Shown here in pieces: positions 39,341-54,872 of a stretch of DNA of 64,000 nucleotides (positions within the stretch are counted from its first letter, which is position 1; the number at the start of each line of letters is the position of its first letter). The notes under the pieces are model-generated. The model was not told the DNA's origin, searched no databases, and worked only from the letters and a program-made list of their open reading frames with translations. Position numbers and translations under genes: made by a program. The DNA comes from Eubacteriales bacterium (lineage in GTDB: Bacteria; Bacillota; Clostridia; Acetivibrionales; JANLFN01). The stretch is from positions 30,792 to 94,791 of the forward strand of contig JANLFN010000003.1 of NCBI GenBank assembly GCA_024655885.1, in the 5' to 3' direction.

Positions 39341-42300
39341 TCAATGTACCGGCTGGATATAGGTCAAATCATATACATTTCCGGTAATATCAATATCATT
39401 AACGGTATATGTAGCGCTCCTGTCCCCTTTAAACGCCGTAACGGTCATTGAGTACGGTTCCCGCAGCCTCACGTCGTCCCATGATTTGGAGCTCTGCGCC
39501 AATGGCAGGGTATATTCCCACACCGCATGGTTGTCCTTTATAGCGCTGTCCAGGCTGCAGGTTGAATCTTCGGGAAACAGTACATAGTACCCGAAGTAGT
39601 CTTTCCCATAGTCATAAGTGACTCCCTTGGCATCGGTATACTGCATGGCCTCCAGTTCCGGGCTGAACCTGATGACCACCCTGTCCGCCCCGCCGGTGGT
39701 CTGAACGTCCACTTTTACGGTTTCCAGGCTTAAGAACCTGTGAGGCTCATTGGCCAGCTGCTTCCCGAACATGTCCACCTGTCCCCTCCAGTGGTTCCAG
39801 TACCCCGTCAGTGTGACTCCCGTAATGGCCAAGGTGGTTATCTTATACGGCCCCCGGTACACATAACAGCTGTTGCCGGCGTTGTCAAAGGCCTCCATGT
39901 GCAGATACCAGGTGCCGTCGGTAGATAATGTGGTGGTAAACACCTTGCTGCTTGAGCTGCTCCAGGACGCAGGCCTTGCCGTGGATTGGCTCCAGGCGTA
40001 ATTGGTATGGTTAAAGTCATTTTCCCCCTGGTCGTCGGCGGTTACCACCACGCTGACAGGCCCGCTGCCGTCATAGGTTTTAGGGTCGCAGTCCACCACG
40101 GGCGGCAGGTTTGTTGTGTCTACATTTTTTACAGCCGGGGTGCTCCAGGCCCCTTCCAGGTCCTGTACCTCAAGGCTCAGCTGATAGACCCGGCTCCTTG
40201 CAAGGTACGTGGGCAAACCCGCCGTCCAGGCCGTATCCGTGGACAGCTTGTATTTCCACTTGCTGTTGGCAATCCCCCGGTCGGTCCGGGAAAGGTGGTC
40301 CCAGTCATAGGAGGTATTCACCGTTTCCAGGATGCAGTTAGACCCGCTTACCCGCAGTGAATAAGAAAAATCCGCAATGGGCCTCCGGTGGAAATAAATC
40401 GTAACCGGCGGCGATTCCGGGCTCCACAGCCTGTAATTATCGAACCGGTTATCGTCCTTCGGGTTGTCCCGCATCCTGCACTTGACCACATACTTCCCCA
40501 CCTTGGTAAAGACGTTGACCGGGCTTGCGATCCACTGCCCCGCAAAACCGGCCACCCCGGTATTGTTTTCAAACACCGTGGGATCATGGTCGAAATACCA
40601 CTGCTGCGCATAGACCGGGTCGGCCTCGAAGTCGTCATACACCGAATTATAGTCAATTTCGTCCTCCCCAAGGATGGCGTACAGCACGTTGGAGGCACCC
40701 CCGTTGAAAGGATTTTTGTATTTGCCGGCGATCCGGCTCAACACGGCGGCCAGATTTGTATACAGGCCACCCTGGGGAGTCTTGGCCGCAAAGCTCTCCA
40801 CCGTGATGTCCTGCACCCGGGCGTTGATGTACGGGGCGTCGAACATGAGCAGATAGTCAGAGGGGTCCAGGGCCATGCACAGGGCCAGGCCGCTGTTCTT
40901 CAAGGTGTCCCCGAAGGCGCCCGTCAGGTTCCCCAGGCCGAAGTAATTGCCGTAGCCTGTATTTGCCCTTAAGCCTGTTCCATCCGACACATAGATGAAG
41001 TACCTGTCCGAGCCGGGCCGCAGGCCGGTCAGCTTGCTTGCTACGGCTGCCTGGTCCAGCCCGTAGACGGTTACCGTATCCTTTGCAGCATCAAACATGG
41101 TTAATGCCGCAGGGGTCGCCGTGTTGGTGTTGTTTATGCGGCCTGTGGCATAGATGCTGCCGTCGGGCCGCAAGGTATAAAATGCATTATTATAAATAAC
41201 ATAAGAGGTATAGTCGGATATGGGATATAACACCGGGAGCAGATTACAGGCGGAAGTATTTCCGGACATATAATAGAAGTTGCCACCCCAGAAATAAATC
41301 CTGTTATTGGCGTCAAAGGCCCATCCGCCATAGCTGTTGAGGACCACCTTTTTTATTCCGTACAGCCCCCTTGCCTTGTAAAAGGAACTATAATCATAGA
41401 TGTCCTCGTTGTTCCCCTGGCACAGCTGCCCGTAGCTGTTGTCGGTGTTGTTCAGGTAAACGGAGCCATCGGCAGTTAGAACGGACATAAAACTACCGCT
41501 GTTGGATACGCTTGCCGCATTTTGTATCCCTAAAGACGTCCATGTACCTGTAATATTGGGCTTGTTGGCGTTGTCAAGGCCTTTTCCCGCTCCAATATAG
41601 TAAGCTGTCCCGTTGACGATGGCCATTGCGGTATATACCGATACGGATATGTCGCTGACGCCGCTCAAAACAAGCCTGGGGGACGTATAAGGAGTATCGT
41701 ACATGGTGTCGTAGTCGCTGCCAAGCGGAAACAGCCCTGATATGGACTGGCGGCCATAGTAGCTCCCAAGGTAGGGCGGGCTGCCCCAATAATAGACGGC
41801 ACCACTGTTGGTCAATACGAGGAACTCCCCGCTTCCCACGCCGATTTCCTTGATGCCTGTGATGGGCACCTGCCCTATATTGCCGTTGGCATCCCGAATC
41901 CAGAGCGTTCCATCCTTTTTGAGGAATAGGAATTGGCTGGTTCCTGCTGCTAGAACTTTCCCCACATTTGTGATAGGCAGTTGCGTCATGGTGCAGCTTT
42001 CATCCGTAATCCAGGCGGTCCCGTCGCTCTTGACAAACACGGTTTGATCTAATGTACCGGCCACACTGGCCAAATGGCTGATAAGGGTGGATTTGCGGGG
42101 CTCGGAAAGGGCAGGCCAGGTTCTTTGTTGCCAATAATAATAGGGTACCATAACACTGGTGTCCCCGAGGGCTAAACTATTCTTTATATTTGTTCCATAC
42201 CCCCACACCTCCCCGTTTGATTTTGCGATGAGGATGCCGCCTTGAGTGGTAAATAATTGGGCGTCCATGCATTGGCTTGTTCCGATGGCGGTTTTGCTGC

Positions 42301-43531
42301 CGCCGTCCACTAAAGCGTACTGCAGGTCATAGCCGTTGACCGCCAGGGAGGATTTCAGGCCGTCCAGCTGGGCCTTGTCGCTGTCCAGCTTTGCCCCCGT
42401 ATGGTCTGTGGCCACGATGAGGTCAACCTTGTTATTTGCCGGCCTGGTATTGTCGCCGATAATCTCGTTGAGGGCTTTTACCGTATCGCCCTGGCTGTAA
42501 AACTTGCCGTCCTGCACGCTGCCGATGAGCTGGGCCAGGGAAAGGTCCTGCTTGTATGAAGCGCTGTTGTAGGAAAGCCGGTAGCCGCTGTCTGAAAAAT
42601 TCATGCTCCTTATGGCGCCGGGAACCACGGCGTACACATGGGCGCTGTTGGCATTGGCAAAATTCAATACATTATCCCTTCTCAAATTTCCGAAGGCATA
42701 ATAATTCCCCCAGGAGCTGGTCAGGGTTTCGGTGTCGGTTCCATCGGAGATGAGCAAAACGTATTTCTCGCTGCCGGCTCTCAGGCTGACATTGTTCAGT
42801 TTGCTGAAATCAATGGAGTTCACCGCCGGGTACTTGACCACATCCTGGTAGTTCTCTGTTTTTGTCCAGGAGGTTTCAATGCCGTAGGAGACATCGTAAA
42901 TATTGTAACGGGTCAGGTAGCCTGTGAAATTTTCCGAATAGGTGGTCACGGATATGGTTACCTGTGTGGCCGCCCGGTTATTGGGATCGAAGAAATAGTA
43001 GTTGGTCCATTCATCCCTGCCGTAATTGGTCTGCCTGACGTGATTATCGGCTTCGCACTTCCAGGTAAGGCTTTTTGAAAATCCGGGCAGGGGATTAGGG
43101 ATGTCCTGCCACACCGATTCATAATCGCCATACTCCGTAACCCACCCGGTGACATCCACTTCCTCTCCGCCTGATTTAAAGATGCTGCCTTCCCTGTAGT
43201 ATTTCACCCAGGCCCTTCTCGCATACCGGTAATTGGTGACGGTTGTGGGCTGGGTCGCCGCCGCCGTACTGCTGTTGATGATCGTGTAGTTCAGGCTGAC
43301 CCGGTTCCCCGCCGCCTCGGTTTTGGCCGCAATCAGCTTGTTCTGCAGGTCGGTCAGCTTGGTCCCGGTATAGTCGGTGAGGATCACAAGGTCCACCTTT
43401 TTCCGCAGGATGGCGTCAAAATCTGCCGTAGGGGCGATGTTTTTTACCCGGCTGTCCGCATACACATTGGTATTTGCGATGAATAATACGGCAAGTATCA
43501 CTGCCATTTGCCGTTTTATCTTTTTTATCAT
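39341..43531 (-). CDS. 1396-aa secreted multidomain protein: two vWA-like modules, RCC1-like beta-propeller repeats, C-terminal Ig/PKD-like domains
   Basis: Signal peptide MIKKIKRQMAVILAVLFIANTNVYA. Duplicated motifs VDLVILTDYTGTKL / VDLIVATDHTGAKL and GSEKYVLLISDGT...WGNYYAFGNL / GSDRYFIYVSDGT...YGNYFGLGNL. RCC1-like strings (NGEVWGYGTN, SGAVYYWGS, DNSYGQLCQGN, NRIYFWGGN). No LPXTG motif. Confidence 0.7.
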   Translation of the reverse strand: MIKKIKRQMAVILAVLFIANTNVYADSRVKNIAPTADFDAILRKKVDLVILTDYTGTKLTDLQNKLIAAKTEAAGNRVSLNYTIINSSTAAATQPTTVTNYRYARRAWVKYYREGSIFKSGGEEVDVTGWVTEYGDYESVWQDIPNPLPGFSKSLTWKCEADNHVRQTNYGRDEWTNYYFFDPNNRAATQVTISVTTYSENFTGYLTRYNIYDVSYGIETSWTKTENYQDVVKYPAVNSIDFSKLNNVSLRAGSEKYVLLISDGTDTETLTSSWGNYYAFGNLRRDNVLNFANANSAHVYAVVPGAIRSMNFSDSGYRLSYNSASYKQDLSLAQLIGSVQDGKFYSQGDTVKALNEIIGDNTRPANNKVDLIVATDHTGAKLDSDKAQLDGLKSSLAVNGYDLQYALVDGGSKTAIGTSQCMDAQLFTTQGGILIAKSNGEVWGYGTNIKNSLALGDTSVMVPYYYWQQRTWPALSEPRKSTLISHLASVAGTLDQTVFVKSDGTAWITDESCTMTQLPITNVGKVLAAGTSQFLFLKKDGTLWIRDANGNIGQVPITGIKEIGVGSGEFLVLTNSGAVYYWGSPPYLGSYYGRQSISGLFPLGSDYDTMYDTPYTSPRLVLSGVSDISVSVYTAMAIVNGTAYYIGAGKGLDNANKPNITGTWTSLGIQNAASVSNSGSFMSVLTADGSVYLNNTDNSYGQLCQGNNEDIYDYSSFYKARGLYGIKKVVLNSYGGWAFDANNRIYFWGGNFYYMSGNTSACNLLPVLYPISDYTSYVIYNNAFYTLRPDGSIYATGRINNTNTATPAALTMFDAAKDTVTVYGLDQAAVASKLTGLRPGSDRYFIYVSDGTGLRANTGYGNYFGLGNLTGAFGDTLKNSGLALCMALDPSDYLLMFDAPYINARVQDITVESFAAKTPQGGLYTNLAAVLSRIAGKYKNPFNGGASNVLYAILGEDEIDYNSVYDDFEADPVYAQQWYFDHDPTVFENNTGVAGFAGQWIASPVNVFTKVGKYVVKCRMRDNPKDDNRFDNYRLWSPESPPVTIYFHRRPIADFSYSLRVSGSNCILETVNTSYDWDHLSRTDRGIANSKWKYKLSTDTAWTAGLPTYLARSRVYQLSLEVQDLEGAWSTPAVKNVDTTNLPPVVDCDPKTYDGSGPVSVVVTADDQGENDFNHTNYAWSQSTARPASWSSSSSKVFTTTLSTDGTWYLHMEAFDNAGNSCYVYRGPYKITTLAITGVTLTGYWNHWRGQVDMFGKQLANEPHRFLSLETVKVDVQTTGGADRVVIRFSPELEAMQYTDAKGVTYDYGKDYFGYYVLFPEDSTCSLDSAIKDNHAVWEYTLPLAQSSKSWDDVRLREPYSMTVTAFKGDRSATYTVNDIDITGNVYDLTYIQPVH

Positions 43532-43563
43532 GCCATATGATTCCTCCTTGCTGCTAAAGCAGC

Positions 43564-45936
43564 TTATTTCCAGAAGCTGCTCTTTTTATAGTCCTCTGCT
43601 GTCAAAAAATCCTTGATGGTATCGCTGTCCGGAATGGTTTCTTGTACTTCTATGCCTATTCTGTAAGTGCCTACACTATAAGTTTTTATGACATCTTCCA
43701 GGTTGTTGGCACTGCTCAAGGGCACGATGGCTTCATCGGAAAAATCGCCGTCGTTGTCGCTGTCGTACATGAAGAAGTATTTCCTGCTGCCGATGGCATC
43801 CCCGTCCGGGCTGTAGGACATGTCATAGATGGGGATGTTTGCGTAATGCCCACCGGCGTCCACCTGGTCCCGGATATTCTCCGTCGGGTAAGTAAAATCC
43901 ACCACAGGGGCTAAATCGGGCCGGATATCCAGCTCGACGGCTGCACTTCCCGTATAATTGGCCGTGTTGGTCATGTAGGCTGTTATTCTGATTTTTCCCG
44001 CCTTCTTGACGATAAATTCCTTTGTGGCGGTTCCGGTTAACCCCCCAAGGTATTTGATATCCCCGGTATTGCACCCGGACACGGCGGTAAATTCCCACCG
44101 GGTCTTTGAGGGGTCGATGGGATAATGGGCCGGGCTTGTCCCCGTGCAGGTGACGGTAATCTTCCGGTTTTCCTTCAAATGGCCTATATAGGCAATTCCC
44201 ACCGTCGGTATGGGAGGCAGGACAGTGATGGCCTTGGTGGTGCTGTCACTGGCTCCCTGGTCGTCCCAGACCTCCAACTGCTGGGTATAATCGCCCTCAT
44301 TGGGGAACCACACGGAGGTGCGGTAGCCTGACCTGGAGCTGGAACCGCTCACTCCGGACAGGGACCACTCGTAGCGTTCTATGGTCCCGTCCCCGTCAAA
44401 GGATTGGGAGCCGTCCAGCCACATGTCATCCCCCGCCATAACCGTGTCGTTGGCTCTTATGATGGCGGTCGGCGGCTTGTTGGACGGGGCCGGAGGCTCG
44501 GTGCTTCCCCCGCTGTTCTCGTCCTTAACCGCCACGCTTACACTGGCGGAGCCGGTAATATAGTTCCCTTTGTCATCCTCCGCCCTGGTTACGTAGTAGG
44601 TATAGGTGCCCTTCTCTGTTCTGGTATACGTTTTAAAAAATTGGGAGGCTGTTGTAATCACCGTATCCGGAAGAAGGGTCTGGGTTTCTCCGGAATCTGC
44701 CTGGAATTCTTCCCGCACTGTCCACTTGGTTATCTTTGTGGCCGCCTGGGACGGCTTGCAGAGGTCTTTAATGGTGTAGCTCTCCCCCGGGGGCACGGTA
44801 TATTTGTCCGCATCAATCCCCAGGGTGGGAGTGCCCGGAGGGGGTGTCTGGTCAAAGAAAAAATACACATAGATGGTGGGATGGGCCTCGGACAGGGTTA
44901 CCGTCCGGTTCTTCCCCGCAGCCCCCGTCACGGTGCCGGTGTAATCAGAGCCGTTTCCCGTATAGGAAAGCTTGCTTTCCTTGAAGTCATACCCGGTGAA
45001 GGTTTTACTTAAATTAACCGGCACGCTTTTGATATTCCCGGCGGTGATGGTGCCGGAATAGACCGTGGTGTTGGAGGCAAGATTGACCTTTGTGCCGTCG
45101 GTGTTGATCCCCCAATAGCAGGCGATGGCCTGTACCTGGGTGGTGCTGGCCTTGAGGGTTGCTTGCCACTTGGCTCGTGTTGCAAAATCGCTCAGTGCGC
45201 TCCCGGACCAGTTGATATCTGTATAAAGGTTATTGAGCAAACACGGGTATGTATTGGGGTAATTGTTGGGGCTGGTATGGGGTCCTCCATCCATGCACTG
45301 GTATGTCCCTACGCACTGGCCGCTGGAATTGAACACATTGACGTTGACCCAGCCACCAAAGGTGTGCCAGCTCCCGTCCGCCTTCCCGTATTGCATAAGC
45401 AGGTTGTCCACGTCCGCCTGGTTTGGGGTATCCCCCACATCCCCGATGTCAATTAAGGGAGAAATATCCACTCCATCAATGCTTTTTACGGTAATGGACA
45501 GGGAGGCATAGGTGTAGGAGGCGTTCGGGTCCGCCGCCGTATCGTGGTGCAGGTTGAGGGTGAACCAGTCGGACTGTACCCCGTCGGCCACGGTGTAGAA
45601 GGTATAGCCTCCCGACGGCATACTCATGATGTAGCTGGCAGAAAAGGTGGCGGTATTGGACTGCGTGGTCTGGGAAAGGGCGGTGGCGCCCCCGCTGCCC
45701 GCCTTCACCCACAGGGTCACACTGGAGGCCACTGTCCCCAGGTCCTGGGTAAAATAGAGCGTAACGCTGGAGCCGGTGTAGTTTACCGTCTGGTTGGTGG
45801 ATACCGCTTGAGGCCCGCTGCCGATGTCGCAGGTTACCGAAAGGGTTGTTGCCGCATAAGCCTTCATGGGAGGCAGGAGCAGCCCCCACACCATTGCTGC
45901 AACCATAAGGAAGGCGATGATTTTGTTTTTCCGCAT
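43564..45936 (-). CDS. ~790-aa secreted protein with PKD/Ig-like repeats
   Basis: Signal peptide MRKNKIIAFLMVAAMVWGLLLPPMKAYA. PKD-like PTAIIRANDTVMAGDDMWLDGSQSFDGDGTIERYEWSL. Start at 45936 chosen for the signal peptide and G-rich RBS; the ORF runs to 45963. Confidence 0.7.
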   Translation of the reverse strand: MRKNKIIAFLMVAAMVWGLLLPPMKAYAATTLSVTCDIGSGPQAVSTNQTVNYTGSSVTLYFTQDLGTVASSVTLWVKAGSGGATALSQTTQSNTATFSASYIMSMPSGGYTFYTVADGVQSDWFTLNLHHDTAADPNASYTYASLSITVKSIDGVDISPLIDIGDVGDTPNQADVDNLLMQYGKADGSWHTFGGWVNVNVFNSSGQCVGTYQCMDGGPHTSPNNYPNTYPCLLNNLYTDINWSGSALSDFATRAKWQATLKASTTQVQAIACYWGINTDGTKVNLASNTTVYSGTITAGNIKSVPVNLSKTFTGYDFKESKLSYTGNGSDYTGTVTGAAGKNRTVTLSEAHPTIYVYFFFDQTPPPGTPTLGIDADKYTVPPGESYTIKDLCKPSQAATKITKWTVREEFQADSGETQTLLPDTVITTASQFFKTYTRTEKGTYTYYVTRAEDDKGNYITGSASVSVAVKDENSGGSTEPPAPSNKPPTAIIRANDTVMAGDDMWLDGSQSFDGDGTIERYEWSLSGVSGSSSRSGYRTSVWFPNEGDYTQQLEVWDDQGASDSTTKAITVLPPIPTVGIAYIGHLKENRKITVTCTGTSPAHYPIDPSKTRWEFTAVSGCNTGDIKYLGGLTGTATKEFIVKKAGKIRITAYMTNTANYTGSAAVELDIRPDLAPVVDFTYPTENIRDQVDAGGHYANIPIYDMSYSPDGDAIGSRKYFFMYDSDNDGDFSDEAIVPLSSANNLEDVIKTYSVGTYRIGIEVQETIPDSDTIKDFLTAEDYKKSSFWK

Positions 45937-45955
45937 GAACCGATGCCCCCCATCC

Positions 45956-46849
45956 TTAACCAATGATTACCGTTACGCCGCCCGTGCCATCCCCAAAGCC
46001 TGCCGTGGGCTGCTCATAAAAAATCAATACCTTATACTCCCCGAACATTTTTCCATACACATCTTTGCTGCTGTCATCCACGGTCACGGCCAGCTTGTAG
46101 ATTTCTTCCCCGTATTCGGGATTCAGGAGCGTAAGGCAGGTTTTCAGGTACTGGTGGAAGGTTTCGGAGGTTTCATAAGTCGTGATTGTGCCTGTATTAG
46201 GTTTTTTCAAGCTGACTGATACTCTCATCGCTTCGGTGGGCGCAGGCTTTACGTTTTTGTCCGGTAATGTCAGATAGCAAGCATAGGGAGAAGTATTCCC
46301 CGCATACGTCAGGTTGGGGATGGCATCCCAGATGGCTTTGGCTATCGGATTGTCCGGGACCAGTTTCCCCTCCTCCTGCGGCACCTGCTCCACGGTGCCG
46401 TCGCTGCGGATGATGACGGTTTTGTTCCTGCTGTCCCAGGCCACCCCGGCCCCCAGGGTTTCGCTCACAAACCTCAAAGGCACGAAGGTCCTGTCGTCTT
46501 TGATGACCGCCCTGGTGTCAAAGGTCCTTTTGGTGTCGCCGGTGCCGGTATGAACAATGGCTTCACTCCGTCCGACCACCAAGGCGATCCGCAGCTCACC
46601 CCGGGTGATGGTGACCAGCTGGGTGCCGCCGTTCCAGTCCACTTCCGCGCCCAGGGCGGTGGACACAAACCGCAGGGGGACCATGGTCCTGCCGTCCTCA
46701 TTGATGAACGGCTGCGCGTCCGGGAAGTCGATGACGGCGTTGTCCACCCTGACGGTGATTTTTGACGGCTGATCCGCTGCCGTTGCAAGGCTGCCGCCAC
46801 ACAACAGCAGGGATATGGAAAGGACAATAGAGATTAATTTTTTTAACAT
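45956..46849 (-). CDS. secreted copper-amine-oxidase-N-domain protein
   Basis: Signal peptide MLKKLISIVLSISLLLCGGSLATA. Two GRTMVPLRFVSTALGAEVDW / DRTFVPLRFVSETLGAGVAW repeats. ATG at 46849 lies 8 nt after GGAGGG. Confidence 0.7.
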   Translation of the reverse strand: MLKKLISIVLSISLLLCGGSLATAADQPSKITVRVDNAVIDFPDAQPFINEDGRTMVPLRFVSTALGAEVDWNGGTQLVTITRGELRIALVVGRSEAIVHTGTGDTKRTFDTRAVIKDDRTFVPLRFVSETLGAGVAWDSRNKTVIIRSDGTVEQVPQEEGKLVPDNPIAKAIWDAIPNLTYAGNTSPYACYLTLPDKNVKPAPTEAMRVSVSLKKPNTGTITTYETSETFHQYLKTCLTLLNPEYGEEIYKLAVTVDDSSKDVYGKMFGEYKVLIFYEQPTAGFGDGTGGVTVIIG

Positions 46850-46884
46850 TTTGACCACCCTCCACTTTTAATTTTTCTATTTTT

Positions 46885-46938
46885 TATAGCTATGGACCTG
46901 CAGAAATAAAAATTCCTATTGAGCCATGGGGGCACGCC
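46885..46938. repeat. intergenic repeat copy inside the Tad-like locus
   Basis: TATAGCTATGGACCTGCAGAAATAAAAATTCCTATTGAGCCATGGGGGCACGCC, homologous to 37220-37275. It fills most of the 108-bp gap (46850-46957) between the cpaB-like gene and the next gene. Confidence 0.75.
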
Positions 46939-46957
46939 ATAGCCGAGAACAGAACAC

Positions 46958-47704
46958 CTATTTCCACGGCAATGCCGAAACTTCCAGTCTTCCGTTGCTT
47001 TTGGCATAGGCCAGGAACTCATCCTGCTTGTCCGTCACTTCAAAGGATATGTACTTGGGCAGGGTTTCCCTGCCTGTATTCTTCAGCAGGCTGCCTTTTT
47101 CGTCGATCAGGGCGGCGATCCTTATATTGTTGAGCCGTTGAAGGCCGCCCTCCCTCAACGGGGCTACATCGCAAAAAGGGGGCTGGGCGTATGCCGCCGC
47201 CCCAATCCCCTCCTGCCCGCTCTCCTGAGCAGGGCCTTTGGAGGCCGCCTGCACCGGAGACAGCGGTTTTACCTTCTCATCCGGGACGAACAGGATGTCC
47301 ACCCTCTGTCCTGTGGCAAGCCACCATCCGTTCACCTGGTCTCCCTTGAACTCCACAGTAAAGAGCCTGTTATTTTTATCCTCCAGCTTGATTTCCTCCA
47401 TTTCGTCCGCCCCGCCGATCCTGCTGTTCAGAACCATTTCCCCTTCTTCTATGTCGGTTTTGGCTTTTTTCCCTTCCAGGTCCTTTATACTTTTCACCGA
47501 CAGCCTGTGGGCCAGGCTTACGTTAATTTTCTTTTCATAGAGCATATCCGCACTGATTTCCGTTTGTGCGGCAATCCTCTTCTTTGCGAACACAACGCTG
47601 ATTTCCGGTTCATACTTAGCCGCGCTTTTCACCACGGCTATCTCCACCCCCAGAAATGCTGCCGCCAATGCCAGGGTCACAAGGATAAGATTGATTCTTT
47701 TCAT
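46958..47704 (-). CDS. cpaB: Flp pilus assembly protein CpaB/RcpC-like (N-terminal TM plus SAF domain)
   Basis: MKRINLILVTLALAAAFLGV anchor, then a SAF-like segment (IAAQTEISADMLYEKKI...DIEEGEMVLNSRI). Tad-locus context. Confidence 0.6.
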   Translation of the reverse strand: MKRINLILVTLALAAAFLGVEIAVVKSAAKYEPEISVVFAKKRIAAQTEISADMLYEKKINVSLAHRLSVKSIKDLEGKKAKTDIEEGEMVLNSRIGGADEMEEIKLEDKNNRLFTVEFKGDQVNGWWLATGQRVDILFVPDEKVKPLSPVQAASKGPAQESGQEGIGAAAYAQPPFCDVAPLREGGLQRLNNIRIAALIDEKGSLLKNTGRETLPKYISFEVTDKQDEFLAYAKSNGRLEVSALPWK

Positions 47705-47733
47705 TTTGAGAAGCTCTCCTTCGTTTTAATCCC

Positions 47734-48285
47734 TCAATTGTTCACCGGAATATCCGAATCCACATGCACCTTCAATTCAATATATTGTTTTCCCATCAGC
47801 TCCAGTATCATCTGCCTGAGCAGGACCGGCCTTACGGGCACGGTCACGCAGCTGTGGACCGCAGGCCTCGCAAGTTTTTTTCCCTCGGGGCAGGCCAGGG
47901 GAAAACCCGCGGTATAGCAGACCAGTGAATCTATGGTAACCGTATTCTCCGCCACCGAATTTTCCCTGGGCGTAAGGTCCCGGTTCAGATTAAGGTTCCT
48001 GGCCAAAAGGTCCCTGTAAATGGCCGCAACCTCCGGGCTGTCAAAGGAAATGCTGTTTTTGCCCAGGTTCCGGGAATTGATGGCCATGTAGGTAGAGACG
48101 TTGGTCATGTCTACGGCGTCTTTAATTATCTGGCCTTTGCACAGGAGGGCATACTTTTCGAAAACCACCGAAAATACGGGTAAAAGCACAAAAACGATTA
48201 CGGCCGCAAACATGACGATGTCATGGGCCGCACTGCCCTTCTCACTCCCCAGTTTTCCCCTTTCAGTCTCCCTCATTTCCCTCAC
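47734..48285 (-). CDS. TadE-like pseudopilin candidate
   Basis: The N-terminus EKGSAAHDIVMFAAVIVFVLLPVF resembles the TadE motif (G-S-A-x-V-E-F then a hydrophobic helix). Context supports the call. Confidence 0.5.
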   Translation of the reverse strand: MREMRETERGKLGSEKGSAAHDIVMFAAVIVFVLLPVFSVVFEKYALLCKGQIIKDAVDMTNVSTYMAINSRNLGKNSISFDSPEVAAIYRDLLARNLNLNRDLTPRENSVAENTVTIDSLVCYTAGFPLACPEGKKLARPAVHSCVTVPVRPVLLRQMILELMGKQYIELKVHVDSDIPVNN

Positions 48286-48356
48286 CCCTTACAATTCCGT
48301 TTTCACACCCATCATACTCTATCCCCAAATTTGGCATGGCCTGTGCCACAGCTGCA

Positions 48357-48734
48357 CTAATTTACCACCCTTCTTGAGATTGACGTTTTATCGTATACCA
48401 TGTGCTGCACCGCATTTTCCATGGAAAACAGGCCTGTAAACCTGCTGTACACATAGTCGGCCTCCACTTTCAGGTTGAGGGCCTCTCCCTGCTTGGCGCC
48501 GGAAGAACCCGCCACCGTAATATTGGTCATGCCCCTTGCGCCCAGCCTGGTCAAAAGATCGGCCTTTCCGGCATCCGAGAGCCCGCCCTCGGTTTCCATT
48601 TCCAGCAGGGTTTTCCGGCAGTCCATATCCATTTCAATCTTTGCGGAAATGGGCAAGAACATCTCCACCATGGCGACCAGCATGGCAATGGTAAACACGA
48701 ATAAAATCCCGAAAACGATGCCCCTGTCCGGCAT
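48357..48734 (-). CDS. small N-terminally anchored protein, second pseudopilin-like candidate
   Basis: 125 aa from the ATG at 48734 (AGGAGG RBS 8 nt upstream). MPDRGIVFGILFVFTIAMLVAMVEMF hydrophobic N-terminus. The ORF track start at 48791 would overlap the pilin gene. Confidence 0.45.
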   Translation of the reverse strand: MPDRGIVFGILFVFTIAMLVAMVEMFLPISAKIEMDMDCRKTLLEMETEGGLSDAGKADLLTRLGARGMTNITVAGSSGAKQGEALNLKVEADYVYSRFTGLFSMENAVQHMVYDKTSISRRVVN

Positions 48735-48748
48735 TCCAGATCCCTCCT

Positions 48749-48979
48749 TCAGGAAGGGGGGAATATCCTGGTGGATATAGTGTTTGCCCACCAGCTGTTC
48801 AAGGCTGCAATGAGGGTGGTTACAAAGCTTCTAAGCTGGGGGATGGTGATAAAGGCAGCGATGATCAAAACCGCAGCCGTCCCTAGAATTTCATCCCGTC
48901 CGAAGCCGTCCTGCCTTTTAAGCGCGGCTTTTGCCGCTGAACCGCATTTTTTAACAAAGCCTGTCATTTTTTTTACCAT
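48749..48979 (-). CDS. flp: Flp-type prepilin candidate (76 aa)
   Basis: Basic leader MVKKMTGFVKKCGSAAKAALKRQDGFG, then RDEILGTAAVLIIAAFITIP hydrophobic helix. The size and the position after the two platform genes fit a Flp pilin. The classical G/xxxxEY motif is not conserved. Confidence 0.5.
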   Translation of the reverse strand: MVKKMTGFVKKCGSAAKAALKRQDGFGRDEILGTAAVLIIAAFITIPQLRSFVTTLIAALNSWWANTISTRIFPPS

Positions 48980-49063
48980 AGGATTCCTGCACTCCCCTTT
49001 CATTCTTTACTCTTTCAGAACCTTATCCAGGCCCATGTTTGCCTGTGCTTGCCCATGCTTGCC

Positions 49064-49996
49064 TCAATTCACAAATATCTTCCCCACGGCATCGGCCACA
49101 TCCTTGATCAGCGGTACGGTTATCATAATCACGGTGATGGATGCAAATATGAAAACCGAAAGGGTCCCCCTCCATTTGCAGCTTTCAGTCTCCGCCTGGA
49201 TGTAGTTGAAATACTTATTGAACATGTACTGCTCCTGCCTGGCCAGCAGTTCCCGGTTATCCCCGGTTTCAACGCCCTGTTTCAACGCAACGCAGAGGGT
49301 TTCCGCCTCCTGCAGGTCAAAGTTGGACCGGAACTCCTCCAGCGCCCGGTCAATGTCCAGGGTGAGCTCATACCTTGCCGCCAGCTGGATCAGGATTTCC
49401 TTGAGTTTTTTGTCCTCAATGACCATGTAAACGGTTTTTATCGCATCCGTAGGTTTAATGCCGGAGCTTATCTGGTTATGCAGGTATTTATAGATCTTAT
49501 ACACATGCCTGCCGAATTTCATGGACATCTCCCTTTTTCCTCTGTAAACCACGTATTCCACCGTAAAAAAGATCATCAGGGAAACCGCCACCGAATAGCG
49601 GACATGGGGATAGTTAAGGACGTAGACCAGGATGAATGCGAGCATGGGAAAAACGTACTTGAAAAAAAGATAGATTGTGGCCGAGTGTTCCCCGCTGTAG
49701 CCCGACTTCACCAATTTTTCCCTGGTTTCCGCATAGAATCCCCAGCGGCCGGTTTTTCTCGCATATTCACCGATGAGCTCCATTACGGAATGGACGGCTC
49801 TCCTGTAAAGCGAGTAATTTTTGTTCCTTCCCGCCATAGCCTCACCCAGCCGTGGGTTGGTATAGACACTCAGCTTCACAAGAAGGGCATGGGCAAGGAT
49901 GAGGTTTAAAGCAGCCATAGCCAGGCAGAACAGTTTATGGCCGGATGCAAAAACAGCGATATCTCTCATTTGTAGTTTTATCCCTCCTCCCATCAA
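49064..49996 (-). CDS. tadC: type II secretion system F-family platform protein (TadC-like)
   Basis: 310-aa polytopic protein with a cytoplasmic helical domain between TM segments. Start overlaps the stop of the preceding gene (ATGA). Confidence 0.6.
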   Translation of the reverse strand: MMGGGIKLQMRDIAVFASGHKLFCLAMAALNLILAHALLVKLSVYTNPRLGEAMAGRNKNYSLYRRAVHSVMELIGEYARKTGRWGFYAETREKLVKSGYSGEHSATIYLFFKYVFPMLAFILVYVLNYPHVRYSVAVSLMIFFTVEYVVYRGKREMSMKFGRHVYKIYKYLHNQISSGIKPTDAIKTVYMVIEDKKLKEILIQLAARYELTLDIDRALEEFRSNFDLQEAETLCVALKQGVETGDNRELLARQEQYMFNKYFNYIQAETESCKWRGTLSVFIFASITVIMITVPLIKDVADAVGKIFVN

Positions 49997-50958
49997 TGTT
50001 TGAACCTTGTAATGCCAAAGGAAAAGTATACCCCTCCCGCAAAGAGGAGGGTAAAAAACGCAAGCAGCAATTTTCCTTCCGTCGTTGCCAGATAATACTG
50101 CTCAACCCTGGGGTTGAATTTAAGAAAAAAATAGCCTATGATCAAAACCAAGAACATCAACACAAATATCAGCAGCCTGTCCTTGTAGGTGGATATCTTG
50201 CGCCTGTCATACTCCTCCTCCAGTTTGTAAAACTGGGCCTCCATGTTTGTAAGCAGCTTTGTAATATCCCCGCGGAACTTAATATTCTGTTTGATATTGA
50301 TAACGAAATCCTTGAACTGGGCGTTATCCACTTTCATCTGCAAAAGGTCCAGGGCCTCCAGAGGGTTTATTCCGCATCTGACCTGGATGCACATGTCCCG
50401 GATGAAGGTGCGGAGAGGCTCGCCGATGCCGGATTCGGTGGATCTTTCAAAGGCATAGAATATATCCTCCTTGACGGTGCACCACCGGTTTAGGACCGAA
50501 ATAAACTCCGCCAGCTTTCTTCTTATTTTTTCCGAGTTATACCTGCCCAGGAGGTCAAGCAGGAAGGCGGGGACGAGGGAAAACATCCCGCAGATTACGG
50601 CGGTGGACGGCACAAAGTACAAAATCCTGTAAACAGGCGGAAAAGTGAGTATAAAAACCAAAACCGAAACCAGCAGCAGGACGTAAAAATTCATGAAAGG
50701 GATATACTGCCTGATGTTCGATTTGTCAATCAGCGTTAATTCCAGTCTTTCAACCAGGCTCAGTTTTACCGAAATCGTCCTCGTGTACTTTCGTGCTTCC
50801 CGTTGAAGCCTCCGGTTCCTGTAGTCCCCGTTCAGCCTGTCCAGGCCCAGGGATAAAGCCTTTTTAATGCTAATGCGGGATGCAAGGGTGTAGGCCAGGA
50901 GGATTGTAAAAGCCGCAAGCAGCACCGAATTCACAATCAGGAGCAGTGAATACTTCAA
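49993..50958 (-). CDS. tadB: type II secretion system F-family platform protein (TadB-like)
   Basis: 321 aa, N-terminal TM, central soluble domain (...GINPLEALDLL...), C-terminal TM pair. Overlaps the ATPase gene stop. Confidence 0.6.
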   Translation of the reverse strand: MKYSLLLIVNSVLLAAFTILLAYTLASRISIKKALSLGLDRLNGDYRNRRLQREARKYTRTISVKLSLVERLELTLIDKSNIRQYIPFMNFYVLLLVSVLVFILTFPPVYRILYFVPSTAVICGMFSLVPAFLLDLLGRYNSEKIRRKLAEFISVLNRWCTVKEDIFYAFERSTESGIGEPLRTFIRDMCIQVRCGINPLEALDLLQMKVDNAQFKDFVINIKQNIKFRGDITKLLTNMEAQFYKLEEEYDRRKISTYKDRLLIFVLMFLVLIIGYFFLKFNPRVEQYYLATTEGKLLLAFFTLLFAGGVYFSFGITRFKH

Positions 50959-52247
50959 AGCTGTCCCCTCCTTTGAAGCTGCTGTTTCAGCCGGCTGCCC
51001 ACATCCCCGTATTTTTTGAAGGTGCCTGTGATGAACCCTCCGCTGTCTTCCTTTTGAATTTCAAAGCCGAACAGCCTGTTGTATTTGTAGCTGTCACTGC
51101 CGCCGTCATACCCCAGCACCTCGATTACATCCACCACCTTGAAGCTTTTGAGATAAAAAATGACGTCGATGCTCTTGGCCATCATTTCCTTGATGGTCTT
51201 TTCACTTTCTCCGGTGTTGGAGCCTTTGCTCAGGGTGAGAAGCCTTGCAAAGGCATCTTCCGCGCTTTCCGCATGAGTGGTGGCGATGCTCCTGTGTCCT
51301 GTAAAGGACGCCTTAATGTATTCCCATGCCTCATCGCCCACAATTTCACCAATACAATAGGTGTCAAGGGACATGGTAAGCCCGTCCCTGACAAGGTCCC
51401 TCAGGGTAATATGCCTTCCGCCCTCGTACTGCTTTTTGATTCTCTGCTCTATGCAGTAGGGCTTGTCAGGGTATATTTCGGCATCCGACTCCACAATTAA
51501 AACCCTTTCCATTTCGGGAAGCTGGTTTACAAAAGCCCTCATAAGGGTAGTCTTTCCCGCCGCACCCTTTCCGCAGAACAACACCGTTGCATCGGTGCAG
51601 GCCAGCTTTCTTATGAAGCCTTCCATTTCTTCATTCATCATCCCCAGCATGGTAAGGTCGGATAGGGTATAGCTGGCCTTCCTGTGTTTCCTTATGCTGA
51701 TGGAGGGCCCCGATATATTCCTCGGCCTTATTGCCACATTGATCCTCAGCCGGTTCTTCTCATCGGTCACCCTGCAGTGGCTGTCGTTTTCATTCAGTAT
51801 TCCTCCGTTGCGGATGGCCACCAGCTTGCAGTAAACATCGAATATCTGTTCATTTCCGAAATTCACGGGGATAATTTCTCTGATTCCATTCCTTTTTATG
51901 ACAAACTCGTTGTACCGGGTCCCGTCGATATCGCTGATGCTTTCATCGTCTATGTACGGCTGCAGGGCGCCATAGCCGAACATGTAATCGAATACCTTAT
52001 TGATCAGGTCCTCCCGGGAAAGGCCGTAGTGGTACTTGTGCCTGTCCATGTCCTTTATGACCGCCGTCTCCAGCACCGCCCTTTCTACGGCGTTATTGGC
52101 CACATCGGCCACAAGCCCGGGGGATTCCTTTAGAATGTCGTAGGTGATGCTGGAGATGAGAATATTAATGTCGCTGTTGTGTTTGTCTGTCTCCTGGAAA
52201 TTTGCACCTGTGATCAGGGGACTATGAAGCGTACTTACCACGGGCAT
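50955..52247 (-). CDS. tadA: CpaF/TadA-type secretion ATPase (T2SSE/VirB11 superfamily)
   Basis: Walker A GKGAAGKTT, Walker B-like DTYCIGEIVGDEA, His box GHRSIATTHA. 430 aa. Confidence 0.8.
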   Translation of the reverse strand: MPVVSTLHSPLITGANFQETDKHNSDINILISSITYDILKESPGLVADVANNAVERAVLETAVIKDMDRHKYHYGLSREDLINKVFDYMFGYGALQPYIDDESISDIDGTRYNEFVIKRNGIREIIPVNFGNEQIFDVYCKLVAIRNGGILNENDSHCRVTDEKNRLRINVAIRPRNISGPSISIRKHRKASYTLSDLTMLGMMNEEMEGFIRKLACTDATVLFCGKGAAGKTTLMRAFVNQLPEMERVLIVESDAEIYPDKPYCIEQRIKKQYEGGRHITLRDLVRDGLTMSLDTYCIGEIVGDEAWEYIKASFTGHRSIATTHAESAEDAFARLLTLSKGSNTGESEKTIKEMMAKSIDVIFYLKSFKVVDVIEVLGYDGGSDSYKYNRLFGFEIQKEDSGGFITGTFKKYGDVGSRLKQQLQRRGQL

Positions 52248-53970
52248 TCCTTTTTAACCTCCTTCCGGCTTTGATCCGTGCCAGCCGTAGAAATGACCTG
52301 CACAAGGCCTTCAAGCCGGCGGACCACCTCTTTAATTTTTGTATGGGGGATTGGGGGGCCAGTATGTCAAACCTGGACAGGATGCCCATATAATCATTCA
52401 AGGTTTTGCCGTCCATGCGCTTCACAAAGGAAGCTTTAAGGTTCCTGCACCTTGCGCGCTTGTCGGAGTACCTGACAGAACCCAGAAAATTCTGCTCGGT
52501 TATTTCCATAATCACCTTGCGTCCCAGGTTGAAGGCGCCATTGTACTCATAGGCCACATATTTCGTTTTGTTTAAAGGCATATTCTGTTTTTCTTTTAAA
52601 AACATGAGATACCGGTTGAATTCCCTGAACTTGCCCATATCGGCCCTCAGGGCAATAATGTTGTAATCGGATTTGACCAGGGAAACCAGGGTATAGGAAT
52701 CATAGATGGACCTGTTCACCAGCAGTATGGTCACGTCAAAGCTCTGGTATGCCTTCTCTATAAGCTTTATCAGGCTGCTGTCGCTAAAATACTCGTAGTT
52801 TTCCAGGCTGTAGCTGCCCGTCAATACGTGCAGATTCTTCACATCCTTGCGCACAACAGACGCCTCTGCCAGTATTTCAGCGGTCAGCAGGTTTTTGTCT
52901 ATAGAATCCATTACAATGTTTAAACCGCTTTTAGGGATGATATGGTCGCTTATAATGTTTTGGGGATGCCTGGGAAGATTTAAGTGGATGTCGCAGGACG
53001 GCGCCAGAAGGTCCAGGTCAATCAGGAATATCTCCAGGTTGGTCAGCCTGGCGGCCAAATAGGCAAATTCGCACCCGAATTCAGCACTGTCCCACATGGT
53101 CAGGACCAGCTTTTTAAAGGAAACCCTCCTGCCGGAGCCCTCTTTTCTCAAGCCGGTTGGGCTCTCTTCACCCACAACGGCATTTCCGCCCTGCCCTCCT
53201 ATGCTCTCTATATCCTGCAAGACCTCCGCCGCCGTCTGGTACCTCTCCTCCGGATTGAATCTGGTGCACTTTTCTATGATGGCCTCTATTTCCGCAGACA
53301 GGCTCTTGTCGAAATACCGCACCGGCTTTATCTCATAAGGCGGCTCATTGGGGCTCTTTCCCGTCAAGAGGTGGTGCAGGGTAATTCCAAGGCTGTAAAT
53401 GTCGGTTACGGGATTTGTCTGGCCTATTCCGTACTGCTCGGGCGCCGCATACCCCCGGGTGCCTATGTAGATGGTATCGCTGTCCGAGCCGGCTTTATAC
53501 TCCCTGGCAATGCCGAAGTCAATGAGCTTTATGGAGCCGTCGCCGGTGAGAATGATGTTGGAGGGCTTCAGGTCGCGGTAAATGATGGGGTTGGGCTTGA
53601 AATTGTGGAGGTAGGTCAAGACCCCGCATATCTGCTTCGCCCAGCTTACCACCTGATCCTCCGGGAATTTCCCCGCCGAGGCCAGCTCCTTGTCAAGGGA
53701 GCTGCCCTCGATATAGTCTTCGATGATATAAATGCTGCGGCTGTCCTCCACAACGTCAAAAACTCTTGGAAGGGCCGGATGGCTGAGCTTCTTCAGAATA
53801 TTGGGCTCTACCAAAAGGTCCATCCCCGGGCCCGGTTTTTTGCCTATCTCCTTAATGGACCACAGGGTGCCCAGCTTCACATTTTCAGCCAGGTAAACCC
53901 TGCTCATCCCTCCCTGCCCGAGAACTTTCAGTATCCTGTACTTTCCTTCAAACAGCTGTCCCTGCCGCAT
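52222..53970 (-). CDS. Hanks-type Ser/Thr protein kinase fused to a TadZ/CpaE-like (MinD/ParA-fold) domain lacking the P-loop
   Basis: Kinase motifs GQGGMSRVY, WSIKEI, YRDLKPSN, DFGIA, GTRGYAAPE. The C-terminal half LVLTMWDSAEFGCEFAYLAARLTNLEIFLIDLDLL follows the TadZ pattern hhhhh-KGGxGKT-helix-hhhhDhD, but the Walker A is replaced by DSAEFGC. Confidence 0.7.
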   Translation of the reverse strand: MRQGQLFEGKYRILKVLGQGGMSRVYLAENVKLGTLWSIKEIGKKPGPGMDLLVEPNILKKLSHPALPRVFDVVEDSRSIYIIEDYIEGSSLDKELASAGKFPEDQVVSWAKQICGVLTYLHNFKPNPIIYRDLKPSNIILTGDGSIKLIDFGIAREYKAGSDSDTIYIGTRGYAAPEQYGIGQTNPVTDIYSLGITLHHLLTGKSPNEPPYEIKPVRYFDKSLSAEIEAIIEKCTRFNPEERYQTAAEVLQDIESIGGQGGNAVVGEESPTGLRKEGSGRRVSFKKLVLTMWDSAEFGCEFAYLAARLTNLEIFLIDLDLLAPSCDIHLNLPRHPQNIISDHIIPKSGLNIVMDSIDKNLLTAEILAEASVVRKDVKNLHVLTGSYSLENYEYFSDSSLIKLIEKAYQSFDVTILLVNRSIYDSYTLVSLVKSDYNIIALRADMGKFREFNRYLMFLKEKQNMPLNKTKYVAYEYNGAFNLGRKVIMEITEQNFLGSVRYSDKRARCRNLKASFVKRMDGKTLNDYMGILSRFDILAPQSPIQKLKRWSAGLKALCRSFLRLARIKAGRRLKRNARGKYAS

Positions 53971-54045
53971 TTTTACCCCCGTGCCTTAAAGCATGTTTTT
54001 TCATAATATATTAATAAATTACATAAATTATATTATTTGTAATTT

Positions 54046-54074
54046 ATTATAGCACAGGATTTTGCAGATTTCTA
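54046..54074 (-). promoter_or_regulatory. candidate sigma-A promoter of the Tad-like locus
   Basis: Minus strand reads TAGAAA - 17 nt - TGcTATAAT (extended -10). An AT-rich leader with an 8-bp inverted repeat AAATTACA...TGTAATTT follows. Confidence 0.4.
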
Positions 54075-54167: not shown

Positions 54168-54872
54168 CTACAATAAAATCCCCATCAGTTCATAAAAATC
54201 TCCCACCCTGGGATCAGCGCCGCCGTGCTTGCCGTACCTGTCCAGCAAAACGGTTTTCATCCCCAGGCTCCCAGGGGTGACATAGTCATTGACATAGTCG
54301 TCCCCTATAAATACTACCTCCTCCGGGAGTACGCCGGCCTTGGACAGGGCGGAATGGTATATGGCCGGGTGAGGCTTGCGCCATCCTTCACGGATTGAGG
54401 TCACCACAAAATCAAAAAAACGGATAATTCCGTTTTGGCTCAAAAGCTCTTCGATCCCGTCTTCCACCATAAAATTGGATACCACGCCCAGAGGGAATCT
54501 CTCTTTAAGCTTTGGAAGTACAGATTTTACATCTTCCTTCACATAGCATTTGGACCGGTAGGTTTTCCAAAAGTTATGGTACAACCTCTTTGAAACTTCA
54601 AAGATTTCTTTTTCCTCCCGGTGGACCAGTTTTTGCCGTACAGCCAGTTCCAGCCTCCGGTACATTTCGCATTCCTCATATTGGGCCAAAGACGCATGAA
54701 GGCTCTCCTTGGCCCATGCATACCCCTCAAGGAATTCCTCGAATCCCCTCCACAGGCCTTCAACGCCCGACCCCTGGTATGCCCACAGGGCGTAGTCCCT
54801 CATTGCAGGCAACTCTGTAAGGTCCACCAGCGTCTCCATGCAGTCGAAAAAAACATATTTTATACCCTTCAT
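54168..54872 (-). CDS. HAD-superfamily hydrolase (subfamily IA-like)
   Basis: Motif I FFDCMETLVD (nucleophile Asp present, second Asp replaced by Met). Motif IV FIGDDYVNDY. The ATG at 54872 has a GAGGGA RBS. Confidence 0.7.
   Translation of the reverse strand: MKGIKYVFFDCMETLVDLTELPAMRDYALWAYQGSGVEGLWRGFEEFLEGYAWAKESLHASLAQYEECEMYRRLELAVRQKLVHREEKEIFEVSKRLYHNFWKTYRSKCYVKEDVKSVLPKLKERFPLGVVSNFMVEDGIEELLSQNGIIRFFDFVVTSIREGWRKPHPAIYHSALSKAGVLPEEVVFIGDDYVNDYVTPGSLGMKTVLLDRYGKHGGADPRVGDFYELMGILL

Follow-up and report, generated by a model that had tools for sequence, protein, structure and literature searches.

A probable Clostridia-specific lineage of Tad/Flp pili with a kinase-headed hub and an optional module of large secreted proteins

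What kind of machine is encoded by eleven closely packed genes that begin with a Ser/Thr kinase, continue with pilus-like components and end in three large secreted proteins? This question is raised by a locus in a 64,000-nucleotide stretch of contig JANLFN010000003.1 from a Eubacteriales bacterium (assembly GCA_024655885.1), hereafter called the window. The initial annotation, made from the letters alone, described the locus as an unusual Tad/Flp-like pilus operon in which a kinase is built into the localisation factor TadZ, and left the maturation of the pilin and the attachment of the large proteins as puzzles. Our analysis of the window and of about 55 related loci suggests that the locus probably represents a Clostridia-specific lineage of Tad/Flp (type IVc) systems, in which a hub made of a kinase and a scaffold gates the pilus and to which a module of adhesins held at the cell wall can be added. 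The domain matches in the core and its conservation across the ~55 loci bear out a monoderm Tad-type system. The machine type itself, Tad, is already known; what is new is a distinct and sizeable variant of it, with a kinase head, a nucleotide-blind hub, an AraC-family partner, an optional module and conjugation-linked sisters. Pilin maturation and attachment likely have ordinary answers, and the large genes are likely not integral to the system.

The eleven open reading frames (ORFs) follow one another on the minus strand from 53970 to 39341, exactly where the initial annotation had placed them. The same DNA is found in the metagenome-assembled genome (MAG) GCA_029907485.1 (Clostridiales/Eubacteriales), on the 290-kb contig JARYLS010000004.1, and in the Joint Genome Institute (JGI) metagenome 3300038743, and the public gene calls on both match the eleven-ORF layout. 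With the public start sites, the first three junctions are overlaps of 26, 4 and 4 nt and the later ones are gaps of about 14-108 nt, so that ORFs and gene calls agree on the tight spacing. The public and JGI annotations describe cassette proteins as "serine/threonine protein kinase" or "hypothetical protein".

The part of the locus most easily recognised is the secretion ATPase, a 430-aa protein of the CpaF/TadA type encoded by the second gene (50955..52247; this and all other cassette genes of the window are on the minus strand). It matches T2SSE (4.8e-26), and the two motifs quoted earlier, GKGAAGKTT and GHRSIATTHA, are present in the translation. Among PDB sequences its best match is CpaF (9e-37 over aa 58-416, with three CpaF entries at ~1e-36), ahead of VirB11 (4e-15), FlaI (1e-10) and GspE/PilB (1e-4 or worse), and this places it in the CpaF/TadA clade that is expected of a Tad system. 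Its match to NCBIfam TIGR03819 (TadA family) has an E-value of 1e-37 and a score of 130 bits, below the cut-off of 373. The next two genes encode a TadB-like protein of 321 aa (49993..50958), which is 49-66% identical in relatives, and a TadC-like protein of 301-310 aa depending on the start (49064..49996; 301 or 309 aa in public calls). Each has one T2SSF domain, as had been proposed, with scores (6e-06, 26.6 bits for TadB; 2e-06, 28.2 bits for TadC) barely above the Pfam cut-off of 25.2 bits for PF00482. Two adjacent platform genes with a single T2SSF domain each are a hallmark common to Tad and archaeal Epd pili (PMC6668835). A CpaB/RcpC-like protein of 248 aa (46958..47704), consisting of a membrane anchor and a SAF domain, was also recovered: it matches SAF at 8e-09 (36 bits; cut-off, 21), RcpC at E=0.01 and TIGR03177 CpaB at 2e-13, the last with 50 bits and thus below the cut-off of 71, and JGI labels it CpaB.

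Between the platform genes and cpaB lie three small genes, which had been described as a Flp-like prepilin and two pseudopilin-like proteins. The first (48749..49003; 76 or 84 aa by start) has a basic leader, the motif G↓FGRDE(I/L)LG (arrow, cleavage site), a hydrophobic helix and a WW..IFP(T/P) tail, all conserved in 14 orthologues. A Flp pilin is defined by a length of 50-80 aa, the cleavage motif G/XXXXEY and the Flp motif; the window protein measures 76-84 aa, has Glu at +5 and lacks Tyr at +6, and it matched neither a Pfam family (Flp_Fap included) nor an NCBIfam one. A "Flp-like" pilin class has been described for Gram-positive tad loci by Imam 2011 (PMC3244431), and we place the protein in that class because of its Glu +5 without Tyr +6.

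The two remaining small proteins turned out to differ from each other. The 180-aa protein (47734..48276; 183 aa by another start) has the leader KG↓SAAHD with an acidic residue at +5, and the pattern (K/R)G↓Sxxx(D/E) is conserved among its orthologues. Its AlphaFold2 (AF2) model (predicted local distance difference test score, pLDDT, 87.9) has a helix at residues 16-66, about 50 residues long, and a four-stranded beta head, a predicted pilin shape, and we refer to it as the minor pilin. Neither TadE nor any other Pfam family was consistently matched in 20 orthologues, no NCBIfam family matched, Foldseek found no significant fold match in the PDB for the model, and tblastn of the protein against plasmids gave no match. 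The 125-aa protein (48357..48734; 144 aa by another start) is anchored at its N-terminus and is a distant relative of DUF4320, which is matched by 9 of 16 members of its family with a best E-value of 5e-4. Since its N-terminal Gly is not conserved, there is no conserved prepilin cleavage site and it resembles DUF4320, it should not be called a pseudopilin. Of the pair, only the 180-aa protein is pilin-like.

The most distinctive component is encoded by the first gene (52222..53970). Its 582-aa product, which we call the hub, is composed of a Hanks Ser/Thr kinase, a variable linker, a domain of the MinD/ParA fold (aa ~283-555) and, at the C-terminus, a basic helix. Pfam assigns aa 11-252 to Pkinase (E=1.3e-46). 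All elements of a Hanks kinase (Gly-rich loop, beta3 Lys, RD..KPxN, DFG and APE) can be found at the motif level, in the form of the Gly loop LGQGGMS, W(A/S)IKE, YRDxKPSN (YRDLKPSN), DFG and GTRGYAAPE, and they are invariant in 17 orthologues; in the catalytic loop, Tyr replaces the usual His. The kinase head looks catalytically intact, and the invariance of its motifs argues for an active enzyme under selection. This supports the initial annotation's view that the protein in the TadZ slot has a kinase as part of its chain. Neither a transmembrane nor a sensor domain was detected in the hub protein. In non-kinase relatives, a region of 145-220 aa without a family match occupies the position of the kinase.

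The TadZ-like half could be placed by fold. The C-terminal ~300 aa matched no Pfam family and no PDB sequence, even when a profile was compared with PDB sequences. An AF2 model of this domain, built from an 18-sequence alignment, shows a Rossmann-like alpha/beta structure (pLDDT 77), and Foldseek matched it to MinD (1e-7), ParA and FleN/FlhG, as well as to TadZ of Eubacterium rectale (3fkq; 1e-4, rank 19). AAA_31 was touched by 19 representatives of the family, with a best E-value of 1e-7. In addition, the hub gene lies directly upstream of the ATPase gene, the place expected for a MinD/ParA-fold gene relative to tadA, and overlaps it by 26 nt. From the fold matches and this gene position, we assign the hub to the MinD/ParA superfamily and to the TadZ slot, an assignment that applies to the fold and not to the sequence.

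The hub seems to have lost the capacity to use nucleotides. TadZ proteins are characterised by an atypical but functional Walker A motif, while the hub has no Walker A at all (no GK[ST]): WD(N/S)AEFGCE follows strand 1 in 17 of 17 orthologues, reading WDSAEFGCE in the window, and the Walker B position reads LLVNRS, with Asp changed to Asn. With both the P-loop and the Walker B Asp lost, the hub is probably a scaffold and not an ATPase. The N-terminal atypical receiver domain that is also counted among TadZ features is replaced in the window by Pkinase. Xu et al. reportedly described this receiver domain in 2012; none was detected in the hub. The basic C-terminal helix (aa ~540-582), judging from its composition and position, may be a membrane tether like that of MinD. 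In a full-text search of the literature that paired TadZ or tad with kinase vocabulary, a kinase-TadZ fusion was nowhere described.

Is this architecture a peculiarity of one genome? A genome scan with the minor pilin yielded 23 loci, all from Bacillota/Clostridia MAGs; exact-protein look-ups added L003, L004 and L033; and 36 more came from a metagenome scan in which a distant kinase-fused subgroup served as the query. This coherent subgroup was used because all 87 representatives described below, when aligned together, proved too diverse for scanning loci. The analysis covered about 55 related loci, and the region downstream of the core was readable in 37 of them. All carriers identified are uncultured MAGs or metagenome contigs. 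The eight-gene core, from the kinase gene to cpaB, recurs with 35-72% identity over the 23 genome loci and ~31 metagenome loci, and the kinase fusion is found in 41 loci that form two divergent clades. A search with the TadZ-like domain among 1.84 billion representatives gave 253 clusters, and Pkinase is present in 47 of 87 near-full-length members. The fusion is thus a family trait, and the idea that the locus is unique, either in its kinase or in its missing peptidase (see below), was rejected. Two distant kinase-fused representatives were on contigs too short to show their context. In L004:8752-10506 (= L019:4493-6247), from a Ruminiclostridium MAG, the kinase-TadZ gene is split into ORFs of 481 and 84 aa, which reflects either a frameshift or an assembly error.

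A tree of the CpaF proteins separates the kinase clade of the window, the distant kinase clade and a non-kinase clade. In the first, the chromosomal site of the cassette is conserved: late flagellar genes and a radical-SAM gene lie on one side of it and araC-leuC on the other. The distant kinase clade adjoins clpP-clpX. The araC gene of the window (38327..39223, minus strand) encodes a regulator with cupin and helix-turn-helix (HTH) domains (HTH_18 4e-24, AraC_binding 6e-10). Of the 37 readable loci, 29 have a gene of the AraC family after cpaB; its product is 70-77% identical within the window's clade, which exceeds the conservation of the pilus proteins there. In the distant kinase clade (L036:14445-15428; L043:14483-15481) it is 33-37% identical over its full length, even though the rest of the flanks is different (leuC versus folP). 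Judging from this conservation of neighbourhood, the AraC regulator, which the initial annotation did not list, is a conserved partner of the kinase-headed cassettes, and it might provide a second, transcriptional layer of control.

Next we consider how the pilin could be matured. Gly at -1 and the acidic residue at +5 on both the pilin and the minor pilin imply that an A24 prepilin peptidase is needed, and the statement that the locus has none was confirmed: no A24 peptidase was apparent in the 64-kb window, either by inspection of the ORFs or by tblastn with the TadV protein of L060. Nor was a Peptidase_A24 gene present within ~9-10 kb in the ~55 related loci, with the exception of L060, a non-kinase member of the cassette family, in which a 139-aa Peptidase_A24 gene (L060:14321-14740, plus strand; PF01478 1e-12, above the cut-off) lies between the minor-pilin gene and cpaB. 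This is the only linked prepilin peptidase among the ~55 loci, and its place inside the cassette suggests that the family is served by a TadV-type enzyme that is normally unlinked. In actinobacterial tad loci, too, tadV is typically unlinked (PMC4322843). The lack of a linked peptidase is therefore the norm of the family and hardly a puzzle any more; the pilin is likely matured by an unlinked enzyme, whose gene would lie in another part of the genome. In the distant kinase clade, genes matching A24_N_bact (the N-terminal part of PilD) occur ~4-6 kb upstream on the opposite, minus strand: L036:2198-3004 and L043:3806-4357 by Pfam, and L039:3438-4241 and L044:3788-4276 by similarity. The catalytic Peptidase_A24 domain was not detected by Pfam in those of L036 and L043, and these genes may be truncated or degenerate prepilin peptidases.

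We then analyzed the three large genes that close the operon. The first (45956..46849) encodes a secreted protein of 297 aa (300 by another start), a putative wall anchor, with Cu_amine_oxidN1 (PF07833) at aa 38-150 (1e-32); the second (43564..45936) a secreted PKD/Ig-like protein of 790 aa (799 by another start; PKD_4 7e-10); and the third (39341..43531) a secreted protein of 1396 aa, called the giant here, with an RCC1-like propeller, Ig-like repeats and a C-terminal domain of ~165 aa. The Cu_amine_oxidN1 and PKD calls of the initial annotation were confirmed by Pfam, and so were, in the translations, the Sec-type N-terminal signal sequences of all three proteins and the absence of LPXTG, and also of a hydrophobic stretch and a basic tail, from their C-termini. 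The possibility that they are sortase-anchored surface proteins was rejected because no sorting signal is present there. The label vWA/RCC1-like for the giant found support in one part only. The propeller at aa 435-760 matches WD40_RLD (1.8e-22; 80.6 bits, below the curated cut-off of 150), but no VWA-family match was found by Pfam at E<=5 with the whole protein or with segments of it, which leaves the vWA label unsupported at the level of sequence profiles. The sequence, read together with the BLAST segments, suggests that a ~300-aa domain of no assigned family occurs twice in the giant (aa 40-340, and aa 365-435 plus 760-900), the second copy being interrupted by the propeller, with the recurring strings VDL(V/I)..TD(Y/H)TG.KL and Y.(L/I)..SDGT. 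When pieces of the giant and the Cu_amine_oxidN1 protein's C-terminal half were compared with Pfam at lenient thresholds, nothing useful emerged.

Are these three proteins part of the pilus system? Homologous modules were found directly after cpaB in the window, L005, L024, L003/L015, L026 and L068, and L060 has a gene for an S-layer homology (SLH) protein two genes downstream of cpaB; altogether the module is present in 7 of the 37 readable loci, in at least three unrelated genomic contexts and in both kinase and non-kinase clades. The PKD protein is ~32% identical over ~500 aa to its counterpart in L015; in L005 and L024 it forms a single polypeptide with the giant. Between module-bearing loci, the giants are 29-34% identical in their N-terminal and middle regions (BLAST) and 56-65% identical in the C-terminal ~165-aa domain, which has 23 database homologues and no Pfam match. 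The remaining 30 readable loci lack the large genes, an outcome that the initial annotation had named as refuting a conserved linkage, and the absence from most relatives implies that they are not an obligate part of the system. Even so, the attachment after cpaB recurs in seven loci, and the linkage between the pilus core and the large genes, as far as gene neighbourhoods tell, is real but facultative.

It could be argued instead that the large genes are cargo that entered a variable cpaB-araC slot and is functionally unconnected with the pilus. Their absence from most loci fits this idea, as does the nearest relative, L033, which has a minor pilin 70% identical to that of the window and shares the HAD-family gene upstream, while its downstream region runs into a PAS sensor kinase gene. 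The slot resembles an insertion hot spot, being filled elsewhere by an LPXTG protein with InlB B-repeats (LPQTG; L027:11731-12885, minus strand), by an HD/PRTase-CE gene (L019:11716-14151) or by 452-464-aa proteins of no known family (L056:15439-16833, L061:15342-16700). The GC content is also raised over the large genes (0.54-0.57 at 40000-46000, with a skew near zero or positive) compared with the flanking regions (~0.48-0.50, negative skew). However, unrelated cargo would not be expected to recur as a homologous module right after cpaB in several unrelated contexts and on both sides of the kinase divide. Moreover, the giant's C-terminal domain, which also matched Fusibacter ferrireducens and Lutispora, was seen in readable contigs only within cassettes, at contig ends or in fragments flanked by insertion sequences (IS); in Fusibacter, Lutispora and Logan contigs, its contexts were of the latter two kinds. 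We thus regard simple cargo as unlikely and retain the optional adhesin module. In the trees, the module-bearing loci fall in the non-kinase sister clade and in an early-branching subclade containing the window, for which the simplest history, as judged from these sequences, is an ancestral accessory module that was lost repeatedly; the raised GC leaves room for its re-acquisition.

The first protein of the module offers a clue to attachment. In all other module loci this gene encodes an SLH protein, and only in the window a Cu_amine_oxidN1 protein. The two are not detectably homologous in their C-terminal halves, and when the hidden Markov model (HMM) of the SLH-protein family was compared with the window protein, only the signal peptides aligned. 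We know of no demonstration that PF07833 binds the cell wall. In the cell-surface protein OlpC of A. thermocellum, PF07833 replaces the SLH modules of other anchoring proteins (PMC3413522). This precedent and the equivalent positions of SLH and PF07833 in the module suggest that module protein 1 gives non-covalent wall anchoring, which provides a plausible answer to the question of how the large proteins are attached. The anchoring scaffoldins of Acetivibrionales with SLH modules, and OlpC/ScaG (PMC3413522), are likewise exported by Sec, have SLH or PF07833 as their sole recognisable module and lack a sortase signal; unlike them, the window proteins have no cohesin or dockerin.

The large proteins also bear on a different reading of the core, as an exporter resembling the type II secretion system (T2SS), whose pseudopilus would push the Sec-exported proteins through or onto the thick wall. 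The genes directly downstream of the core do encode large secreted proteins that lack covalent anchoring signals, and T2SS and Tad share ancestry (PMC6668835). Yet 30 of the 37 readable loci have the full core and no such substrates, the pilin is of Flp size and the ATPase is of the CpaF and not the GspE type, which makes an exporter very improbable compared with a pilus.

Relatives without the kinase point in a further direction. In L003/L015, the tadZ-like gene overlaps by 4 nt the last gene of a Tcp-type conjugation operon (L003:68-11323), which encodes an integrase, FtsK/TcpA, TcpC, TcpE, a VirB4-like AAA_10 protein and an M23 hydrolase, and in L070:3623-9828 the tadZ-like gene follows those for a TraG-like ATPase and an M23 peptidase. 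These arrangements could mean that the cassette is an organelle of DNA transfer, either a conjugative mating pilus or aggregation device of a Gram-positive element or a Tad-type competence pilus. In line with this, the top NCBIfam match of the window ATPase is named "TadA family conjugal transfer-associated ATPase", and Tad pili mediate transformation in Micrococcus luteus (PMC4322843). That NCBIfam score is, however, far under its cut-off, and the window and all kinase-headed loci have no conjugation genes, integrases or competence genes nearby and sit at a conserved chromosomal site by late flagellar genes. A present role of the window cassette in DNA transfer therefore seems distinctly improbable. 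Tentatively, and with rather less confidence than we have in the kinase-gated pilus itself, we consider a history in which an undescribed Gram-positive Tad family originated on conjugative elements, with an SLH-anchored giant, sometimes its own TadV and a mating or aggregation pilus; a chromosomal derivative may then have gained a Hanks kinase on the nucleotide-blind scaffold and the AraC regulator, with phosphorylation, in place of ATP-driven MinD/ParA cycles, setting the place and time of pilus formation, and the window would be a rare intermediate that has both the kinase and the module. That the sister clade sits within conjugation operons also hints that pili might assist mating in Gram-positive bacteria.

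For the kinase-gated Tad pilus, we propose the following mechanism. The CpaF-type hexameric ATPase would drive the TadB/TadC membrane platform, which would polymerise the Flp-like pilin, of ~50 residues after cleavage by the A24 peptidase, and the 180-aa minor pilin would probably prime or cap polymerisation. The DUF4320-like and CpaB/SAF proteins would form the extracytoplasmic part. The kinase-scaffold protein would dock at the platform, so that the kinase is located where assembly occurs and could gate pilus assembly or retraction by phosphorylation, either of itself or of components of the machine. Where the module is present, its three proteins would be exported by Sec; module protein 1 would probably hold the complex on the wall non-covalently, and the PKD protein and the giant would act as an adhesin or a surface array, either docked to the pilus or working beside it.

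Several points weigh against this picture. The pilus, the transcript and the phosphorylation are all predictions from the sequences of MAGs. The Flp-like and minor-pilin proteins match neither Flp_Fap nor TadE, and the minor-pilin model has no significant PDB match; the T2SSF and CpaB scores are marginal. The assignment to TadZ depends on gene position and a generic MinD/ParA fold, for which MinD outscores TadZ in the model comparison. The search for an A24 enzyme covered the 64-kb window of this genome only. Finally, the functional link between pilus and large proteins is deduced from neighbourhood, and the slot holds unrelated genes elsewhere; 30 of the 37 readable loci, closest relative included, lack the large genes, and the higher GC of these genes is compatible with a separate acquisition.

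The comparison with known systems shows which parts are conventional. Like the canonical tad locus of Aggregatibacter actinomycetemcomitans and the cpa locus of Caulobacter crescentus, the window has a CpaF/TadA ATPase with TadB and TadC, and a short pilin whose leader has Gly -1 and Glu +5, accompanied by a minor pilin and a SAF protein resembling CpaB/RcpC; likewise, the gene for its MinD/ParA-fold hub precedes that for the ATPase. Unlike them, it lacks a secretin, TadD and RcpB, as expected for a monoderm, and a linked TadV; its pilin has no Tyr +6 and no Flp_Fap match; it has one pilin-like minor subunit together with a DUF4320-like protein; and its hub has no Walker A and is headed by a Hanks kinase. 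A diderm reading was rejected, no secretin-like gene being seen in the locus maps, which were inspected without a secretin HMM search. Compared with TadZ 3fkq and with MinD/ParA/FleN, the hub shares the C-terminal fold and the position just upstream of the ATPase gene, but has no sequence-level match and has a kinase at its N-terminus. TadZ keeps ATP binding (PMC6668835), whereas in the hub the P-loop is replaced (by WDNAEFGCE in the Asn form of the motif) and the Walker B Asp by Asn.

Among monoderms, the tad loci of Clostridia (PMC3244431) and Micrococcus luteus (PMC4322843) are similar to the window in their secretin-less cores and "Flp-like" pilins without Tyr +6; the clostridial ones are likewise divergent, with tadA, tadC, tadZ, rcpC and lineage-specific genes, and the actinobacterial ones share the often unlinked prepilin peptidase. 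No monoderm tad locus with a kinase-TadZ fusion, an AraC partner or the anchor/PKD/giant module was found described in the literature. As for the large proteins, the minor-pilin tips TadG/KilN are tip or adhesin accessories of type IV filaments (PMC12075869). The module resembles these and PilY1 in that large modular proteins encoded with pilus genes customise the binding of the filament. The giant has a Sec signal and a beta-propeller in common with PilY1 of type IVa pili. On the other side, the large proteins bear Sec leaders, lack a class III motif and so are no pilins themselves, and homology to TadG or PilY1 was not detected. They are also accompanied by a putative wall-binding partner, and most relatives do without them.

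What places a Tad machine and turns it on is poorly known except in Caulobacter and Aggregatibacter, with next to nothing established for monoderms. A nucleotide-blind hub with a conserved kinase would link Ser/Thr signalling directly to the assembly of a type IV filament. The fusion is present in at least 47 clusters at 50% identity, in two divergent clades. The anchor/PKD/giant module would be an example of adhesins bolted onto, and lost from, a pilus cassette. That the carriers are uncultured is the main limit on experimental access; the only cultured organisms met with, Fusibacter ferrireducens and Lutispora, were matched solely by the C-terminal domain of giants.

The following features were also observed in or around the cassettes. 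One variant locus (L067:9863-16467) has, after kinase-TadZ and CpaF, genes for a SAF protein, for a 294-aa protein of no known family and for one of 685 aa that contains a second T2SSE-like P-loop; these replace tadB/tadC and the pilins. In the window, the promoter proposed by the initial annotation 5' of the kinase gene (54046..54074, minus strand; TAGAAA-17-TATAAT with an extended TG, sigma-70-like) is the top-scoring site between 38 and 56 kb, but such sites occur in the region at chance frequency (18 found versus 17.6 expected), and it should be regarded as a candidate only. No convincing internal terminator was seen across the cassette, and scans for Rfam families and tandem repeats gave no matches. 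A HAD-family hydrolase gene (54168-54911, minus strand) is located between the radical-SAM gene and the kinase gene; among the maps, a HAD gene was annotated at that spot only in the window and in L033, which adds a PNPOx gene. Directly upstream (55961-63900, minus strand) lie the late flagellar genes flgN, fliS, fliD and flaG, together with a cluster for sugar-nucleotide or NeuB-type flagellin glycosylation, and this synteny between the flagellar region and the pilus cassette is kept throughout the kinase clade.

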